Of a stretch of DNA of 64,000 nucleotides, positions 4,084-33,674 are shown one piece after another. Made by a program: the position numbers and the translations under genes. Position 1 is the first letter of the stretch, and the number at the start of each line of letters is the position of its first letter. The notes below the pieces were generated by a model. The model saw only the letters and a list, made by a program, of their open reading frames with translations. It made no database searches and had not been told where the DNA came from. Origin of the DNA: a virus (taxonomy: Duplodnaviria > Caudoviricetes); IMG/VR virus record IMGVR_UViG_3300005714_000005, positions 1 through 64,000 of that record, one strand, 5' to 3'.

Positions 4084-4473
4084 ATGAAAAGAATTTTAAA
4101 GAAAGATTATGTGGAATTTATGACAAAATGTGAAAAGTTAATCATTGATAATTTAGATGTTGTTAGCGTTGAGGATTGGGAAATGTCAAAACGTTTCATT
4201 TGCCAATCCGATACAGTTGGTAATTATTATATTTCACTTGACAAGTATGATAGTAAATATAATAATAAGGTATACTATATTGTAGCACGTTTCGAGGATT
4301 TAGAAAAGACAAGGGAAACATTTGGAGATGGATATTTTAATGCCAATATTGGTTATACAGGTAAAATGACATTTTCATCATTTGGAAATGAGGACGAAAA
4401 GGAAATGATGTACAATCGCTTTTATGATTTAGTATGTGCTTTACTAGATGAAAATACCGAGATTAAAGAATAG
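4084..4473 (+). CDS. Hypothetical protein
   Basis: ORF with own promoter (4022) and terminator. Confidence 0.75.
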   Translation: MKRILKKDYVEFMTKCEKLIIDNLDVVSVEDWEMSKRFICQSDTVGNYYISLDKYDSKYNNKVYYIVARFEDLEKTRETFGDGYFNANIGYTGKMTFSSFGNEDEKEMMYNRFYDLVCALLDENTEIKE

Positions 4474-4499
4474 GATTGTCAGTTATGACAATCTTTTTT

Positions 4500-5300
4500 A
4501 TATTGTTCTGATATTGGCATATGATTGTATTGTTAGTGGATCATGAATAGGTAATTTGTTGGTTATGGTAGATAGGTGATTGAGTGGTTAGTGATATGAT
4601 AGGTGTGATTGATATGATAATAGTATGATAGTGGTGATGAAATAGGTGTGATATAGTGGGAAATGGATAGGCGAATAAGAGGAATATAACTATTATATAG
4701 ATAGTAAAATAGTAAAATAAGTGAGTGAATACAGAACAACACACAACTCACAAAAACTCAAAAAATGGCAAAAAATAGCCCCTTTTCTGAGTCCCCCATT
4801 GGTTGCGACAATATGTATTATAGAAACCAATGGGGGGTATATTTCCATATTTTAGGGGGTTTTATCCTTGAAAAATTGTCGTAACACTCCCATTTTCACA
4901 CCAACTCAATTTTCAATCAATCCCACTCAATCCCATCTATCCATTTCATTAAACTCCCACAATACTAACGTTCTACCAACATTTCAACTCAACTTCATAG
5001 AACTCAACCTAACTAAATCCAACCTAATTTACCAACTATCCATAACTCAATACCAACTAACCTCCATGAAACTATCCACTCAACCTATCAACCTATCTAA
5101 TTTAACCCTTGTTCAGTTCTGAACTTTCGCTTAACTACCCATTTATTTCATTTCAAATATCCTACATTTCAACCTTAAAATCTACCCAATCGCTATTGTT
5201 GCAACTTTCCTATATCCCTTTTCACTTTGATTTACGATAAAACCTTAAATCAATGAATACATGCCTTTCTTGACTTCATATTTTACCCACAAGGGGTAGG
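4500..5300. other. Non-coding strand-skewed region; possible genome end, packaging or terminus region
   Basis: G/T-rich, C-poor 4500-4730 switches to C/A-rich, G-poor 4880-5230; repeated (A/C)ACTCAA; GGGGGTAT motifs. Confidence 0.55.
4801..4828. other. dif-like tyrosine-recombinase site
   Basis: GGTTGCGACAA-TATGTA-TTATAGAAACC (11-6-11) within a 12-bp perfect inverted repeat 4793-4804/4825-4836. Confidence 0.6.
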
Positions 5301-5489
5301 GGGTATGTTTTCGATAAATTGTACCCCCTTAATTTAAAACACCTAGAATCGCCTAAAAATAGCGTACAGGCATATATTAAGGTTTATATTAAAAAGTTGA
5401 TAAATTTAAACTTTATGCATTGACTTTTATATCTGCTTGCTATACAATAGGAAATGTAAATAAGCCACCCTTTGAGGTGAGATAGGAGA

Positions 5490-6008
5490 ATGTATATGCA
5501 AAATTATATTAACGACAAATTAAGAATGTTATTTATCTGTAAAGATGACTTGACAATGAAGATGATGGCTACAAGCATTATGCTTGAATTAACCAATCTA
5601 TCGCCCGAAGATGAAACTCCAACCACTATCATAACAACTTATAAAGAGTTAATGTCAAATGCAGGTCGTTTATCTCAAGTAACGAACACAGAGAGATTGG
5701 ATGAAGTTGCAGAAATTACAATTGTAACTTGGTTTGGAATCTACAGATTCTATTCTTATGAGAATGGTTTGAGTGCATTGTTAGGTAGACGAGTAAATGT
5801 TCTAGTCCTAGATGATGAATTGGAATTGCAAGAAGAAGAAATTAAAGACATTATTGAACCAATTACTTCTGAGTATGGAGACATGATTTTATTATCTAAA
5901 TTTACTCAATGTGAAAGTGAAACGAAATATACACGACAATTACATCGCTATTATAAGCAAATTCACCTAGATTTGGTTTGTGATAAATTTGTGGGGAAAG
6001 GAGAATAG
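5490..6008 (+). CDS. Protein resembling the Walker-B part of a terminase ATPase domain
   Basis: LLGRRVNVLVLDDE...IIEPITS versus TerL AKGLRRNGLVFEEA...NTEPLTS; no Walker A. Confidence 0.5.
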   Translation: MYMQNYINDKLRMLFICKDDLTMKMMATSIMLELTNLSPEDETPTTIITTYKELMSNAGRLSQVTNTERLDEVAEITIVTWFGIYRFYSYENGLSALLGRRVNVLVLDDELELQEEEIKDIIEPITSEYGDMILLSKFTQCESETKYTRQLHRYYKQIHLDLVCDKFVGKGE

Positions 6009-6010
6009 GC

Positions 6011-6250
6011 ATGAGCAAGTACCTACTAATGGGTAAGGATAAGTGGATAAGGGTATCACATAAGGATATTAGAAAAATCGAGAAAGTAGATTACCCAGGA
6101 GCGCATAAGAGTTGTCGCTATCGCATTATTATTACTGACAATGATAATCTTCGAGAAGAATTTCCTTATGAATTTAAAGAAAATCGAGATGAAAAATTTG
6201 ATAAAATATTATCTATGCTTGGGATAGAAAAGGAGAATGGAAATGAATAG
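6011..6250 (+). CDS. Hypothetical protein
   Basis: Coupled ORF in operon. Confidence 0.7.
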   Translation: MSKYLLMGKDKWIRVSHKDIRKIEKVDYPGAHKSCRYRIIITDNDNLREEFPYEFKENRDEKFDKILSMLGIEKENGNE

Positions 6251-6446
6251 TCGAGATACACAAACAATTTACTACAAAATTTATTATACTGCAAATGGGA
6301 AACAACAATTTAATTGGACTGAGGATAGGCTAATGATTCGCCCTATGGTTGAAACAATTAAGGGATATGGTTACACAGTTGATTATATTGCACAAGTGGT
6401 CACCAAGACAAGTGTTAGAGAACATAAATTGGAAGTTATGATGTAG
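6237..6446 (+). CDS. Hypothetical protein
   Basis: Overlapping ORF with RBS aggag. Confidence 0.7.
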   Translation: MEMNSRDTQTIYYKIYYTANGKQQFNWTEDRLMIRPMVETIKGYGYTVDYIAQVVTKTSVREHKLEVMM

Positions 6447-6461
6447 ATAGGAGAGATTGAG

Positions 6462-6770
6462 ATGGTATTGGATAAAATCAAGGAATACATAAGTACCGTT
6501 TTCAAGCATGACGAGTTTACCGAACATGAATTAACCTATGCAAGTAGATTGGTTAAGGAAATCATTCTTGAAGCAAGAACCAATAGCCTTAAAGTTGGCG
6601 ATAGATTGATTGGAATTGCAGGAGATGAATATATTGTAATAAAAATACAAAACAATGAATACAAAGTGTTAAATTTGGAAACAGGCAAAACCCTAGCTTT
6701 TACATTTGAAAACCTAAGTGAATTAACATTGGCTTGTAAGACTTGGGGAATTATTAAAGACAGAGATTAA
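6462..6770 (+). CDS. Hypothetical protein
   Basis: RBS ggag; terminator at 6790-6816. Confidence 0.7.
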   Translation: MVLDKIKEYISTVFKHDEFTEHELTYASRLVKEIILEARTNSLKVGDRLIGIAGDEYIVIKIQNNEYKVLNLETGKTLAFTFENLSELTLACKTWGIIKDRD

Positions 6771-6907
6771 TATCGGTATTAATTTAACGAGAACTAGAGA
6801 AATCTAGTTCTTTTTTGTTCCTTTTTGTTGACTTTTGTAAACTAATGTTATATAATACTATTGTAAACCAACCTTATGGTTGAATAAAATAAAAGGAGAG
6901 GAAAAGT

Positions 6908-7771
6908 ATGAGTGAATTAATTAAAGTAACTACGAATGAGCAAGGTCAAAAATTGGTGAGTGCAAGAGAGTTGCATGAACTACTAATCATTAACGAGGGC
7001 AAGAAAGAACGCTTCTCTCAATGGTTCAACCGACACTTGCAATATGGTTTTGAGGAAAATGTTGATTTTACAAGTGTAAAAATTTTTACGGTTGTAAATA
7101 ATGGTGCAAAACGTGAATTAGAAGATTATGCTATGACGCTAGATATGGCTAAGGAAATGGCAATGTTGCAAAAATCAGACAAAGGGCGAGAAGTTCGTAA
7201 ATATTTTATTGAATGCGAAAAACGAGCAAACTCTCAAGCACCTCAATTAACTCGTGAGCAATTTAATGTATTGACATTATATGAAATGGGTGGACAAAAG
7301 GCAGTTGATATTGCTTTAGAGATTAAGCAAGTTGGGATTGAAATGGGTGTATCTTTGGGCAAAGAGCAAGGTATGAAACATTTATGCAATGATGGTGTTA
7401 TCACAATTCCTGAGATTATGAATTATATCAAGAAAGAGTATGCTAACGAATTTGCTTATTCTTGTGATATTCCTTCAACAGAATGGACTAGATACTTACG
7501 ACATATGGAATATTTAGAAACTAAACAATTTGTACGAAAAGATGGCAAAGGTATTGAGAGCAAATGGTCTTATCAACCTACTCAATTATTTGAGGATGTC
7601 TTTGTCGCACAGGGTATGGCGATTGTAAGTGAGATTGATGAGAGAAAGAAAAAGAAGATTACATACACGATTGAAATTGAGAAATTCTTGTTATCAGATT
7701 TATTCAAACAGAGTTTCTTTGCATACTTAGATAATTTCTATCCTAAACTGGATTTAGATATGAGTGCTTAA
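6908..7771 (+). CDS. AntA/AntB-type antirepressor domain protein
   Basis: VSARELHE...FSQW...GFEENVDF...DYAMTLDMAKEMAM...GREVRKYFIECEK. Confidence 0.85.
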   Translation: MSELIKVTTNEQGQKLVSARELHELLIINEGKKERFSQWFNRHLQYGFEENVDFTSVKIFTVVNNGAKRELEDYAMTLDMAKEMAMLQKSDKGREVRKYFIECEKRANSQAPQLTREQFNVLTLYEMGGQKAVDIALEIKQVGIEMGVSLGKEQGMKHLCNDGVITIPEIMNYIKKEYANEFAYSCDIPSTEWTRYLRHMEYLETKQFVRKDGKGIESKWSYQPTQLFEDVFVAQGMAIVSEIDERKKKKITYTIEIEKFLLSDLFKQSFFAYLDNFYPKLDLDMSA

Positions 7772-7901
7772 GAGTAGAAAATTCTACTCTTTTTATTTTC
7801 CTTAAATTTCATTATTTTCAATTATTTAACATTTTTGTAATAAATATGTTGACATTTATCAATTTGTATGCTATATTAATATTAACAAAAGAGTTAAGGA
7901 G

Positions 7902-9203
7902 ATGAGGGAAATGAATCCATTTACATTTTTAATTGATAAGCAAGTTGATAAGAAAGTTGAAGAAATCCAAACTAAAATAATCAAAGGTAATGAAAAAGTA
8001 ATTGAAGAAGCTAGAGAGAATTATAAAGAATTAGAGAAACAACGTGAATTAACTGCTAAATTACAGGAAGAAATTATGTCATTGAAATCAATCATTGATA
8101 GCAAGGAGAAAATAATTGATTTTAAACAAAAGGAAATTGAGGAAAAACAACTTGAAGTTGATAAAATAAATAATAGTCTTTATGCTGAAGATTGTGGAAT
8201 GTATACAGATATTCAACAAATTGCTTTTAAGTTTTCAAACTCTGAGCAATATCAAAATGCTATCCAATCTAATCTTAAAGCACAAGAAGAAATGGTAGCA
8301 ATGGGGACTGCTTGTGAATGTGCTATCAATTGGACAGTAGGGAATAGCGTGAAGAAAGGTGCTAAGATGACGAAAGATGGAATTGCTATGGCACTGCGTT
8401 GTTTCAATGCAGAGTGTGGAGCAATTATTGGGAATATCAGTTCTCGTAGCACTTATAATTCTATTGAAACAAAAATTGAGAAATCATTCAAAGCTATCAA
8501 TCGTTTGAATAAAGTATCGCAAATTGTAATTACTGAAAAATACTTAGAGTTAAAAATTGAGTTAGCCCACTTAGTATATGAACAAGCTATCATAGTAGCC
8601 GAGGAGAAGGAGGAAGCTAGACGACAACGTGCAATTTTGCGTGAAGAAGAAAAGTTGGCTCGTGAGATTGAGAAAGAAATGGAAAAGTTAAATAATGAGC
8701 GTATTAAATATGAGCAGGAATTACAACGTTTAATCGAGCAACAATTAGATAACCAACGTGTTGAAGATTTACAAAATAAAATTCAAGAGTTAGACGAGCA
8801 AGAAATCAACCTTGAAGAACGATTAAAAAATAAAGCAGGATATGTTTATGTGATAAGCTCGCCTGTTATGGAGGGTATGGTCAAAATCGGAGTAAGTAGG
8901 AGACTTAATCCTTATGAGCGAATCGCAGAATTATCTAATGCTAGTTCACCTTTCAAGATGATTACTCATGGGGTCGTATTTTCTGAGGACGCTTTTGAAT
9001 TGGAAAATAAATTGCATAAACACTTTGATGATAGAAGGGTAAACAAACTAAATCGTAGACGTGAATGGTTTATCTGCACACCTCAAGAAGTTGGAGAATT
9101 TATTAATGCCAATATTGATAAAACTGTTGAGTTTAGTTACAATGTTAAGGACTATGAATATGAGGAAAGCAAGAAAATTGCTTCCTCGATGAAAGGAGAA
9201 TAA
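7902..9203 (+). CDS. DUF4041 plus T5orf172/GIY-YIG-like domain protein
   Basis: Coiled coil, LRCFNAEC; C-terminal GYVYVIS...KIGVSRRLNPYER...LENKLHKHF...EWF. Confidence 0.8.
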   Translation: MREMNPFTFLIDKQVDKKVEEIQTKIIKGNEKVIEEARENYKELEKQRELTAKLQEEIMSLKSIIDSKEKIIDFKQKEIEEKQLEVDKINNSLYAEDCGMYTDIQQIAFKFSNSEQYQNAIQSNLKAQEEMVAMGTACECAINWTVGNSVKKGAKMTKDGIAMALRCFNAECGAIIGNISSRSTYNSIETKIEKSFKAINRLNKVSQIVITEKYLELKIELAHLVYEQAIIVAEEKEEARRQRAILREEEKLAREIEKEMEKLNNERIKYEQELQRLIEQQLDNQRVEDLQNKIQELDEQEINLEERLKNKAGYVYVISSPVMEGMVKIGVSRRLNPYERIAELSNASSPFKMITHGVVFSEDAFELENKLHKHFDDRRVNKLNRRREWFICTPQEVGEFINANIDKTVEFSYNVKDYEYEESKKIASSMKGE

Positions 9204-27756: not shown

Positions 27757-28752
27757 ATGATACCTATGAAAAAGATTTATTTAGAAAAGCAATTTATGAA
27801 AGCAACAAACTTGAACAATTACATCATTGGTGAGATTTTGAGCCACAACAAAGATGCAGGAGAGTATCAAATCGAAAAAGAAGATGGCACTATCTTGACA
27901 GTATTTTCACATTCTTTACTAGGGTGGGAAAACTATGATGAGCGACCTAATCGAGCTTTTGATAATGATAAATTAAATAAAATCACCAATAAGCCAACAC
28001 TACAACCAAAAGGCAAAGTTATCTATGCGGTAGATATTTGTCGCAGTAATCATGGAACAGACGTAGCAGGTTTTACCGTTTCGACTGTCATGCAAGATGG
28101 AACTATTGTAGTACATTTTACAGATAATTTAAGAGGAAGTTATAAAGGTATCGCAGAGACAATACTTAAATATATTGATAAAAACCATGATTTTGGTCGT
28201 GAGGCAGAATTGCGAGTTAATACCGTAGGGCTAGGTAAAGGAATTCTTGATTACTTAGAAGATTGCCCTATACCAGTCAAGATGTGTGGAATTGACGAAG
28301 TGAAACAAGCACATTCAACATTAAGAGAAAAAATTTATCAAGAGGAAATGATTATTAATGAAACTCTAAAAGAAACATTAGAAAATCTTGATAATAAAGT
28401 TTTTATTTCTAAAGACGGTTGTAAAGTTTTACTTGAACAACATGAATCAAATATTGAACAATATGCTTTATTTAGTAGCCTACTAATGACTTGTCATGAT
28501 GGTGGTAAATTCTTATACGAAAATGAATTTGAGCTTTGGATTGAAAAAACTTCGCTAAATCAATCAAGCTCTCTGATAGAAATTTATCACTTGATGTTAA
28601 GAGATAACAAAACGAGAGAAGAAGAGTGTGTCACTTCAAGTCAAAAGCGTTACGAAATAGAAAACACGATGAACTTTATGGTTAAAGCATTTGGTTTAGC
28701 AAACAAGAAAGCAAAAGTACATATCGGAATCAAAGAAGAGTCTACTAAGTAG
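27757..28752 (+). CDS. Protein with a TerL-like RNase H nuclease domain
   Basis: IYAVDICRS and VNTVGLGKGILDYL parallel TerL YISIDVARS and VDINGLGKGLMDYI. Confidence 0.6.
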   Translation: MIPMKKIYLEKQFMKATNLNNYIIGEILSHNKDAGEYQIEKEDGTILTVFSHSLLGWENYDERPNRAFDNDKLNKITNKPTLQPKGKVIYAVDICRSNHGTDVAGFTVSTVMQDGTIVVHFTDNLRGSYKGIAETILKYIDKNHDFGREAELRVNTVGLGKGILDYLEDCPIPVKMCGIDEVKQAHSTLREKIYQEEMIINETLKETLENLDNKVFISKDGCKVLLEQHESNIEQYALFSSLLMTCHDGGKFLYENEFELWIEKTSLNQSSSLIEIYHLMLRDNKTREEECVTSSQKRYEIENTMNFMVKAFGLANKKAKVHIGIKEESTK

Positions 28753-31120: not shown

Positions 31121-33674
31121 ATGCCAACAGAAAAAATAGGTTATAAAAGTGAATACACCCAGGAACAACAAGTTGAAAGATGGTCAGAGTTAATAGCCTA
31201 CTTTCGTTGGTATCCCGACATCATGCTAGATTGGCTAAGACCAACCGAAATAGACAAAGAAACTGGTAAGGTGAGAAAGTTAGGGATAGAATTAGGAGCG
31301 GATCAACGCCTACTACTTAGGAATATGTGTCGTTTTCCTTATAACTTCGAGGTTTTGAGCCGAGGATATGGTAAAACAACTTTCGAGCTATTGGCTTTGT
31401 ATCTAATGGCTATTCTATATCCTGATACAACTTGGTCAATGTCTGCTCAGACACTACAAACAAGTGCAGGGTTCTTTAGTGATAAACACGCAGATATTAT
31501 GAGATTTTATCCTATGTTGTTAAATGAAATTGACGGCAAGGTAAGAATTAGCGATAATGCAGTTGAGATTTGTTTTAAGAATGGCTCGGTTATAACAAAT
31601 GTAACCAATAGTGGTACGGCAAAAGGTCTCAGAAGGAACGGACTCGTATTCGAAGAAGCGGCATTAATGAACTTTAACAACTATCGTGACAATACCGAAC
31701 CTTTAACTTCAGAGGAGATTAAATCGCCACGTTATCAATCGGTTTATGACCCATATTGTAGCAACAAACAAAACTTTGTAACAACTGCTTACTATAAAAA
31801 TGAAGCATTTGAATTTTGTCGCAATATGGTGCTAGACATGGCTAATTGTAAAGGTGCTTTTGTTTACGGTGCTAGTTATAAATTGCCTGCGAAATTTGGA
31901 CGAGGGAGAAGTGTAGAACAAGTAGAGGCTCTGATTGATAAAGTAGGGCAATTAATGTTCAATTTCAACTACGGTTCTCGTTGGGCAGTCAACAATGGCT
32001 CTTGTATCGTTGATATGGATGAACTTAAAGCCTTACAAACTTTAAGTCAAGCAGAATTAAAAGGTCAAAAGAATGGCGAATACTACATCTCAATAGACGT
32101 TGCCCGAAGTGCAAAGACTTCTAACAATGCTAGTGCAATTGCTATCTTGCGGGTCAGACGAGATGCACGAGGTAAAGTTCGTGAGATACAAGCGGTCAAT
32201 CTAGTAAAATTACCAAACGGACTAAACTTTAAACAACAAACTGTAATTTTAAAACGCCTATGTAATCTATTTGAGCCTGAAGCATTGATAGTAGATATTA
32301 ATGGGTTAAATCTAGCCCCTTTGTATAGCAATATACACCGAAAAACTCTTTTAATTCATGGGAACTCTCAATCTTTAATTGAGACAATCATGAGCGAAGC
32401 TAAAATTCAATGTTATATTTTCAATGGAAAGAAGTGACTATATGAAAGAAGTATGGAAACCGATAAAGAACTACGAAGGTTATTACGAAGTTTCAAATAA
32501 GGGTAAAGTAAGAACAGTTACAAGATTTGTTCCGAATAGTGGCAAACATGGAATGTGGTATGAATCACGTATTCTCAAATTCAATATAGATAAAGACGGA
32601 TACTGCACAGTTGCTTTACAGAGAGAAGGAAAAGTAAAGCGATGTAAAGTGCATAGATTGGTGCTATCTACTTTTGACAATTATGAGAGTGATTTACAAG
32701 TAAACCACATTGACGGAAATAAACTCAATAACTGTTTAAGCAACCTTGAATGGGTAACTAGTAGTGAAAATATCAAACACGCATATAGTATTGGACTTAA
32801 AACCCAATCAGGTTCAAAGAATAACGGTTCTAAACTAACTGAGGAGCAAGTTATTCAAATGTGTGATTTCTTCAAATACACAACTTTTACTAATAAACAA
32901 ATCGCCGATATGTTTGACATAAAAAGCGATGAAACGATTAGAAAAATTAGAAAAAGAAAAGCGTGGACACACGTGACACAAAACATTGAATTTTAGAACG
33001 TGCAACGACTATCCCGAAAGGGAGTACACTCAAGCGAGTGGAAATGGAGAGTACCCAACTTGGGTAAAGATATAGTCTGGACTATGTGGTGACATATAGA
33101 AGTTCATAAGAGAACTGGCAAGGTGGTAGCGTACCTTGTTGAACACATTGTAGGTAAGGGACTTATGGATTATATTTTAGACGAAATTACATTAGAAGAT
33201 GGTACGGTATTGGAGGCTTACGACATGATTAATACTGACTACCGAAGTGAATATCGAAATGCTAAACGCTGTGTTTATGGTATTGAAGCACAATCTAACA
33301 ATACAGAAATGATTGTGCAATTTCAAAACATTGTAGGAACAAAAATCCTACGACTATTAGAACCTTTTGATGTTAATAAAGCTATCGACATTCCCGATGA
33401 AGATTATCTAGTGAGTGATATTTTACCGTTTTTACGAACTGAGAATTTTATCGGTGAAGTGCAAAACTTAACTGTTGAGGAAATTCAAGGTAGTGGTAAA
33501 TTAAAAGTCGGTCAACTCGTTAGAGCAGATAAGGATATTTTCTCGGCAGTTCAGATGGGTTCGTGGTATATCATGAAACATAAGAATGTTGGCTATGAGG
33601 AAGAGCAAGATATTGATTATCATGCAGTATTCAAATCTCTTATGAGAAAGCCTGATATTTATAAACATAGATAG
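31121..33674 (+). CDS. terL: Terminase large subunit; join(31121..32306,33151..33674), ~569 aa
   Basis: Walker A SRGYGKT, Walker B LVFEEA, nuclease IDVAR; splicing restores DINGLGKG. Confidence 0.9.
32307..33150 (+). mobile_element. Group I intron in terL encoding an HNH endonuclease
   Basis: P1 gggU/Gccc; gcaacgactatc and aagatatagtct core elements; terminal G. Confidence 0.88.
32442..32996 (+). CDS. Intron-encoded NUMOD4-HNH endonuclease
   Basis: EVWKPIKNYEGYYEVSNKGKV; HRLV...VNHIDGNKLNN..SNLEW. Confidence 0.92.
   Translation: MKEVWKPIKNYEGYYEVSNKGKVRTVTRFVPNSGKHGMWYESRILKFNIDKDGYCTVALQREGKVKRCKVHRLVLSTFDNYESDLQVNHIDGNKLNNCLSNLEWVTSSENIKHAYSIGLKTQSGSKNNGSKLTEEQVIQMCDFFKYTTFTNKQIADMFDIKSDETIRKIRKRKAWTHVTQNIEF

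Follow-up and report, generated by a model that had tools for sequence, protein, structure and literature searches.

The stretch of DNA analysed here (the window) comprises the first 64 kb of a 105,750-bp IMG/VR virus contig, IMGVR_UViG_3300005714_000005, with an estimated completeness of 68%. The G+C content of the contig is 33.5%, and its source is a large uncultured gut phage. Relatives of its large terminase subunit (TerL) were found at 64–70% identity in faecal metagenome-assembled genomes of Bacilli and other taxa and at 36–39% identity in genomes of Bacillus and Paenibacillus. We studied an open reading frame (ORF) of 172 amino acids, placed by the ORF list on the plus strand at 5490–6008, which an earlier note on this DNA had taken for a free-standing fragment resembling the terminase ATPase domain. 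The protein is likely a pseudo-ATPase derived from the ATPase domain of TerL.

The ORF is the first gene of a compact four-gene operon consisting of a promoter, the TerL-like ORF, three small ORFs, and a terminator-like hairpin (Table 1). The segment 5391–6773 was carried as one unit on metagenomic contigs. The promoter, of the sigma-70/sigma-A-like kind that the earlier note had described, was found again by consensus scan and is kept in a related phage (G002); its sequence is that of a strong, early-type promoter as far as the timing of expression can be predicted. An operator, also proposed for this promoter, was not recovered, and only weak overlapping palindromes with 77% complementarity were present at the −35 hexamer. 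No RNA data were found among the listed sequencing runs with near-identical DNA. The true start of the gene is most likely the second ATG at 5496, with the annotated ATG at 5490 lying two codons early, since all homologues begin at the third codon and the start of the related phage is aligned there behind the same ribosome-binding site. The conserved ribosome-binding site GGTGAGATAGGAGA also fits this start, which probably gives a protein of 170 amino acids (5496–6008). Neither the ORF nor its three operon neighbours had a significant match in PHROG, Pfam, NCBIfam, or PADLOC. We rejected a split gene with this ORF as one of its exons, because the ORF has its own stop codon, the next ORF is coupled to it, and the homologues all end at the same place.

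Table 1. Positions of the operon, of the regions discussed within its first gene, and of the terL exon used for comparison.
Feature	Positions	Strand	Basis
Promoter, sigma-A-type, TTGACT-17 nt-TACAAT	5420–5448	+	Consensus scan, 10/12 matches; both hexamers kept in G002
Leader with ribosome-binding site, CTTTGAGGTGAGATAGGAGA	5470–5489	+	Near-identical in G002; AGGAGA ends 6 nt before the ATG at 5496
Coding sequence, probable 170-amino-acid TerL-ATPase-like protein (alternative ATG at 5490)	5496–6008	+	ORF list, homologues, variants, AlphaFold model
First strand and loop LFICKDD, where the P-loop would sit; no Walker A	5520–5549	+	Regular-expression search; hhalign
TerL-matching block, residues 93–127: G97-x-R99, Walker-B-like VLVLDD (102–107), D118, E121-P122	5772–5876	+	BLASTP, hhalign
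Three small co-transcribed ORFs	6011–6250, 6237–6446, 6462–6770 (span 6011–6770)	+	ORF list; no known family
Intrinsic-terminator-like hairpin closing the operon	6789–6812	+	Scan: 10-bp stem, then T-run
terL exon 1, ATPase domain: Walker A SRGYGKT, Walker B LVFEE; reference block 31613–31717	31121–32437	+	Translation; phrog_2 terminase large subunit, E 1.2e-8

The likeness to TerL, which had been drawn by eye, was confirmed by BLASTP, profile comparison, shuffling, and ranking within the contig. In a single BLASTP comparison, residues 99–128 of the ORF in the 172-residue numbering (GRRVNVLVLDDELELQEEEIKDIIEPITSE) aligned with residues 169–198 of TerL (GLRRNGLVFEEAALMNFNNYRDNTEPLTSE), with 11 of 30 positions identical and an E value of 0.006. 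When the family was compared with TerL profiles by hhalign, the probability was 6.8% for shallow profiles and 55.6% (E 1.2e-4) for broader ones, and it reached 77.6% (E 1.9e-5) against the TerL ATPase domain alone. The score climbed as more diverse sequences joined the profiles, and the same block was aligned each time. None of 200 column shuffles attained the observed score (39.0; shuffle maximum 25.7). Among the 129 ORFs of at least 80 amino acids on the contig, TerL ranked first against the family profile with a score of 29.0, followed by 19.8 for the next ORF (mean 12.9, standard deviation 2.9).

Within the matching block, G97, R99, D106, D107, D118, E121, and P122 of the ORF family fall on the TerL invariants G169, R171, E178, E179, D190, E193, and P194 with identical spacing. 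A Walker B feature, V[LVT]V[LI]D[DN] with D106 invariant, is present in all members and aligned with LVFEE of TerL (E178, E179); the general hhhhD[DN] motif occurs in 12 of 12 family members. G97 and R99 are invariant, stand opposite the invariant G169 and R171 of TerL, and are preceded in the structural model by a hairpin (residues 71–87); by analogy with the literature, R99 may correspond to an arginine finger. In a relaxed hhalign alignment the two families stayed collinear over a longer stretch, which begins at the helix following the P-loop position, includes the beta-hairpin, and ends with the strand beyond Walker B; confidence was low outside the core block. The Walker A motif (GxxxxGK[ST]) was absent from all 12 family members in a regular-expression search, in accordance with the earlier note; the corresponding loop reads CKDD, TKDN, CKGE, or DDTN. 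In the extended hhalign alignment, the helix after LFICKDD was placed, with low confidence, opposite the helix after SRGYGKT of TerL.

The conserved residues can also be read as those of a working enzyme, in which the acidic pair, R99, S134, and K144/Y145 would catalyse, without a P-loop, a metal-dependent reaction whose substrate might be a nucleotide or nucleic acid. R99, D106, D118, S134, K144, and Y145 stay invariant even among members with only 27% identity, and polar residues conserved to this degree occur more often in active sites than in pure binding surfaces. However, no enzyme family was matched, and the same residues are equally well explained as inherited core or interface positions of TerL. 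We consider a catalytic role improbable.

Structure prediction with AlphaFold, with four distant homologues included, gave a predicted local distance difference test score (pLDDT) of 87.4 and a predicted template-modelling score of 0.86; an earlier run with 10 close homologues (pLDDT 42.6) was not used. The elements of the model follow the order strand, helix, strand, helix, hairpin, strand (VLVL-DD), helix, strand, helices. A Foldseek search of the PDB placed the TerL ATPase of P74-26 on top (E 4e-3, probability 0.97–0.98), followed by Rab/Ran GTPases. Among the viral models of BFVD, the matches were mostly large terminases (probability 0.98–1.0), together with small uncharacterised phage proteins. 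The predicted fold was P-loop-NTPase-like with TerL as the top match and middling scores, rather than one unrelated to TerL or P-loop ATPases. In a language-model search with the whole protein, the nearest named clusters were Terminase_6N (0.91–0.92). Residues 1–72, which exclude the matching block, retrieved only packaging-ATPase clusters, namely TerL_ATPase, Terminase_6N, GpA_ATPase, and Gp16 (0.86–0.88). Co-folding of the ORF protein with the TerL ATPase domain (residues 1–300) scored 0.00, which is no evidence either way.

An alternative is that the likeness to TerL is convergent or too generic to mean homology. The ORF would then encode an alpha/beta protein of the three-layer type (Toprim-, flavodoxin-, or GTPase-like) without kinship to TerL, whose role would be early and host-directed. 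We regard this as unlikely, though still to be reckoned with. Against the family profile, the Toprim domain of E. coli TopB scored 11.5, less than random ORFs do on average, compared with 29–39 for TerL, and with TopB Toprim as the comparison no sequence similarity of the ORF protein to the Toprim of type IA topoisomerases (Top3B, 5GVC; E. coli Topo III, 1I7D) was seen. The family has neither the Toprim DxD nor the conserved glutamate: the Glu position after strand 1 is occupied by C, K, or T, and strand 3 is followed by DD with a variable third residue. PF01751 (Toprim) was not found in the contig. The small GTPase (TRAFAC) motifs G1 GxxxxGK[ST], G3 DxxG, and G4 NKxD were likewise absent from the ORF protein. 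In addition, the seven conserved residues line up with TerL invariants without any change in spacing, and Foldseek and the two language-model queries independently favour terminases.

Several of the uncharacterised BFVD proteins, 101–177 amino acids in length, matched the fold as well as terminases did (template-modelling score 0.45–0.59 on the target). They come mostly from Gordonia, Mycobacterium, Arthrobacter, and Bacillus phages, and one is annotated as an AAA-ATPase. Judged from the models, many phages may carry small P-loop-like domains as separate proteins.

Nine clusters of homologues at 59–92% identity were found in a collection of 5.8 billion proteins, and an exhaustive HMMER search added four more distant ones at 27–42% identity, about 13 in total. 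All homologues are metagenomic, some of them on contigs of 82–131 kb, and they measure 166–175 amino acids, except for one form of 116 and one of 57. No longer or fused homologues were found in a search that we rate as weak evidence, and a C-terminal RNase-H-like nuclease domain is absent, the protein ending at 170 amino acids. Near-identical DNA was detected in animal gut metagenomes from four studies. Among the differences listed for ORF variants on contigs of those runs, 9 were synonymous and 4 non-synonymous, and two pairs of indels restored the frame within a few codons. The ORF is a real gene under purifying selection. When 50,697 phage records were searched by tblastn and megablast, nothing matched the ORF, the region, or P0103, one of the distant homologues. 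Related loci were not found in viral contigs with family profile A1 and homologue P0098, or in genome contigs with profile A3. Metagenome contigs gave a single match in the related-locus scan (L002), which lay in eukaryote-like microsatellite DNA and was dismissed as due to chance.

The loss of Walker A, the small size, and the distance from the packaging genes would also suit a decaying, functionless fragment of a terminase duplication. This explanation is effectively refuted by the conservation data: the gene has its own conserved promoter and ribosome-binding site, every homologue, even at 27% identity, has an intact frame, synonymous variants outnumber non-synonymous ones, and the indels come in compensating pairs. 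We leave it a negligible chance.

The gene was absent from five related phage records, two of which have a TerL 71–78% identical to that of the window. In G002, the promoter, leader, and ribosome-binding site are kept (81% over 235 columns), and behind that leader lie a different gene of 212 amino acids and a gene of 109 amino acids, after which synteny resumes at a 433-amino-acid protein. One gut-metagenome contig follows the window to the start codon (5498) and continues with another coding sequence (ATG GCT AAG AAA CAA...), and mosaic alleles of the ORF occur on other metagenome contigs. The conserved leader seems to serve as a recombination anchor for swapping the first gene. Since promoter and leader are kept while the genes downstream differ between related phages, the gene is accessory cargo of a swappable early slot. 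Such exchange of cargo is characteristic of accessory genes involved in interaction with the host.

The distance to terL is 25.6 kb, in line with the 25 kb given previously. Both this separation and the accessory status bear on the idea that the protein is TerL-derived and acts on DNA packaging rather than immunity. As an ATPase-dead subunit that retains the arginine and the acidic residues, it could enter or cap the TerL ring, or tie up a TerL partner, for example the small terminase or the portal; the phage's own packaging would thereby be delayed early in infection, or the terminase of a competing phage or satellite poisoned. The evidence for TerL-likeness applies here equally, and an early-type promoter far from the late genes would suit a timing function. 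The invariant G-x-R, eight residues before the acidic pair, is also said to represent the subunit-interface residues of TerL motors; in P74-26 TerL, the arginine of this motif reportedly acts at the subunit interface. Nevertheless, the gene is dispensable in close relatives with 71–78% identical TerL, which is unexpected for a core packaging regulator, and it is unlinked to the packaging module. A packaging role therefore appears to us rather improbable.

The best explanation of the locus as a whole, which we hold tentatively and at somewhat less than an even chance, is that of a degenerate free-standing relative of the TerL ATPase acting non-catalytically, as a structural mimic, on a TerL-binding protein. 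The protein appears to keep the order of TerL secondary-structure elements, the G-x-R, the acidic pair, and the D..EP, and to have lost the P-loop. Without the P-loop, canonical ATP binding would not occur and ATP hydrolysis would not be expected, so the protein probably functions through mimicry, without catalysis. That such a mimic binds some partner of TerL is suggested by the core and interface residues it has kept and by its accessory place behind an early-type promoter. A structural mimic of the TerL ATPase domain would occupy a protein normally bound by TerL, and a terminase-sensing immune receptor of the host would be the first choice. At the receptor, the protein might compete without forming the ATP-dependent interface, or it might itself be the receptor's target.

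A number of points weigh against the mimic. No curated terminase model in Pfam, PHROG, or NCBIfam was matched significantly (E <= 10 or 0.1), profiles A1 and A3 found nothing beyond chance matches among PDB sequences (E > 1), and the confident sequence match spans only about 35 residues. Profile A3 gave no meaningful alignment with T4 gp17 or T4 vs.8, so any true kinship lies with the TerL lineage of the phage itself. The aligned chain ranges of the TerL superpositions start after what we take to be the position of the P-loop, and the strand order of the model may accordingly not be ASCE. The language-model scores can be taken only as leads. Activation of the sensor is what the known stand-alone TerL-like proteins bring about, and none has been shown to inhibit it. 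Finally, the binding partner and the mechanism of mimicry are pure inference on our part.

Avs1–3 and Upx sense the TerL ATPase domain, and EcAvs2 seals the interface by a bridging ATP that touches the terminase-bound ATP (PMC13601566, PMC11564622). By analogy, a P-loop-less TerL copy, made early and in excess, could fill the terminase pocket of an Avs1–3- or Upx-like receptor as a non-activating competitive decoy. Because no ATP would be bound by the mimic, the nucleotide-dependent activating interface would not be completed, and the protein would, if this were true, be the first non-activating decoy of a terminase sensor. We give this specific version only a slim chance; no anti-defence or defence family was matched by the ORF. 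Alternatively, the protein could be another stand-alone TerL-like protein whose primary role lies elsewhere.

Upstream of the operon promoter, about 1 kb after a terminator (4472–4495) is devoid of credible ORFs (4474–5489). This region contains clustered direct repeats (GTGATATGATAGGTGTGAT-like, 4587–4652) and a 21-nt inverted repeat (4793–4836), and parts of it (4797–4915) are 75–78% conserved in the related phages G001 and G002. An Rfam search of 4300–5600 gave no match. The region may be regulatory or origin-like, or may encode an RNA. A perfect 8-bp G/C-rich hairpin at 5298–5329 (AGGGGGTA, 16 nt, TACCCCCT), about 100 nt upstream of the promoter, is conserved together with its flanks (...AAATCGCCTAAAA...) in G002. 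Beyond the operon, a separate strong promoter (6828–6856, 11/12 matches) is followed by an Ant-like anti-repressor gene (6908–7771, plus strand) and, within the region 6908–9203 of the same strand, by the gene of the 433-amino-acid coiled-coil protein (phrog_1847; about 72% DNA identity in G002).

The terL gene is broken after ...VDINGL by an insertion carrying a NUMOD4/HNH homing endonuclease gene (32424–32996, plus strand) and resumes at ...GKGLMDYILDE within 33123–33674 (plus strand). Uninterrupted TerL homologues of about 560 amino acids exist, one of them named large terminase. Frame breaks were also seen in the terL matches of the relatives L003 and L004. A nuclease-like fragment, noted earlier at 27757, received weak support. 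It belongs to an ORF of 331 amino acids (27757–28752, plus strand), the middle of which (approximately residues 68–173) resembles the start of the TerL nuclease domain, covering the first catalytic-Asp strand and GLGKG(I/L)LDYL (BLASTP E 8e-4; hhalign E 8e-4, probability 24.6%). The homologue in G002 has 223 amino acids and matches only the ends (residues 1–68 and 256–329); the TerL-like part is absent there. If the decoy role of the ORF at 5496–6008 were true, the TerL-nuclease-like ORF and a tape-measure mini-gene elsewhere in the genome would form with it a set of 'core-protein mimics'.

The TerL ATPase domain is a main molecular pattern by which bacterial STAND receptors (Avs1–3) and Upx detect tailed phages, and this gives the ORF family its interest. 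It shows kinship at the sequence level to the TerL of its own phage, lacks specifically the nucleotide-binding loop while the other core residues are kept, and occupies a swappable early slot. It would thus be a clean candidate for separating an anti-defence decoy from an unavoidable trigger and from a packaging modulator, and an example outside enterobacterial phages. If it were merely a generic alpha/beta protein, it would be of minor interest.

Compared with the TerL ATPase domain (the phage's own; P74-26, 4ZNI/4ZNK/4ZNL; D6E, 5OE8), the ORF protein shares the order of elements, the hairpin before Walker B, and the G-x-R, acidic pair, and D..EP at identical spacing, and these domains are its best structural matches by Foldseek and VIA. 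It differs in having no P-loop/Walker A, lid, or nuclease domain, in its length of 170 amino acids, and in its accessory status behind an early-type promoter. Among stand-alone proteins, the nearest precedents are the TerL-like T4 vs.8 and Ksap2, which fit the terminase pocket of Avs2 and activate it (PMC13601566, PMC11564622). T4 vs.8 is, like the ORF protein, a free-standing small TerL-ATPase-related phage protein confined to one phage lineage; it is toxic with EcAvs2 and retains Walker A and B, whereas the ORF family is without Walker A (PMC13601566). No sequence relation between the two was detectable (hhalign E 0.04, out of register), and T4 vs.8 comes from a coliphage, the ORF protein from a gut Bacilli-type phage. 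Ksap1 (74 amino acids) and Ksap2 are small non-terminase activators of KpAvs2 without reported sequence homology to TerL (PMC11564622, PMC13601566), while the ORF family matches the TerL of its own phage at the sequence level. Free-standing phage proteins that resemble the TerL ATPase are already known, but the ORF family itself is undescribed, matching no family model and no named homologue. What is new in it is the lack of Walker A combined with residual sequence kinship to the phage's own TerL.
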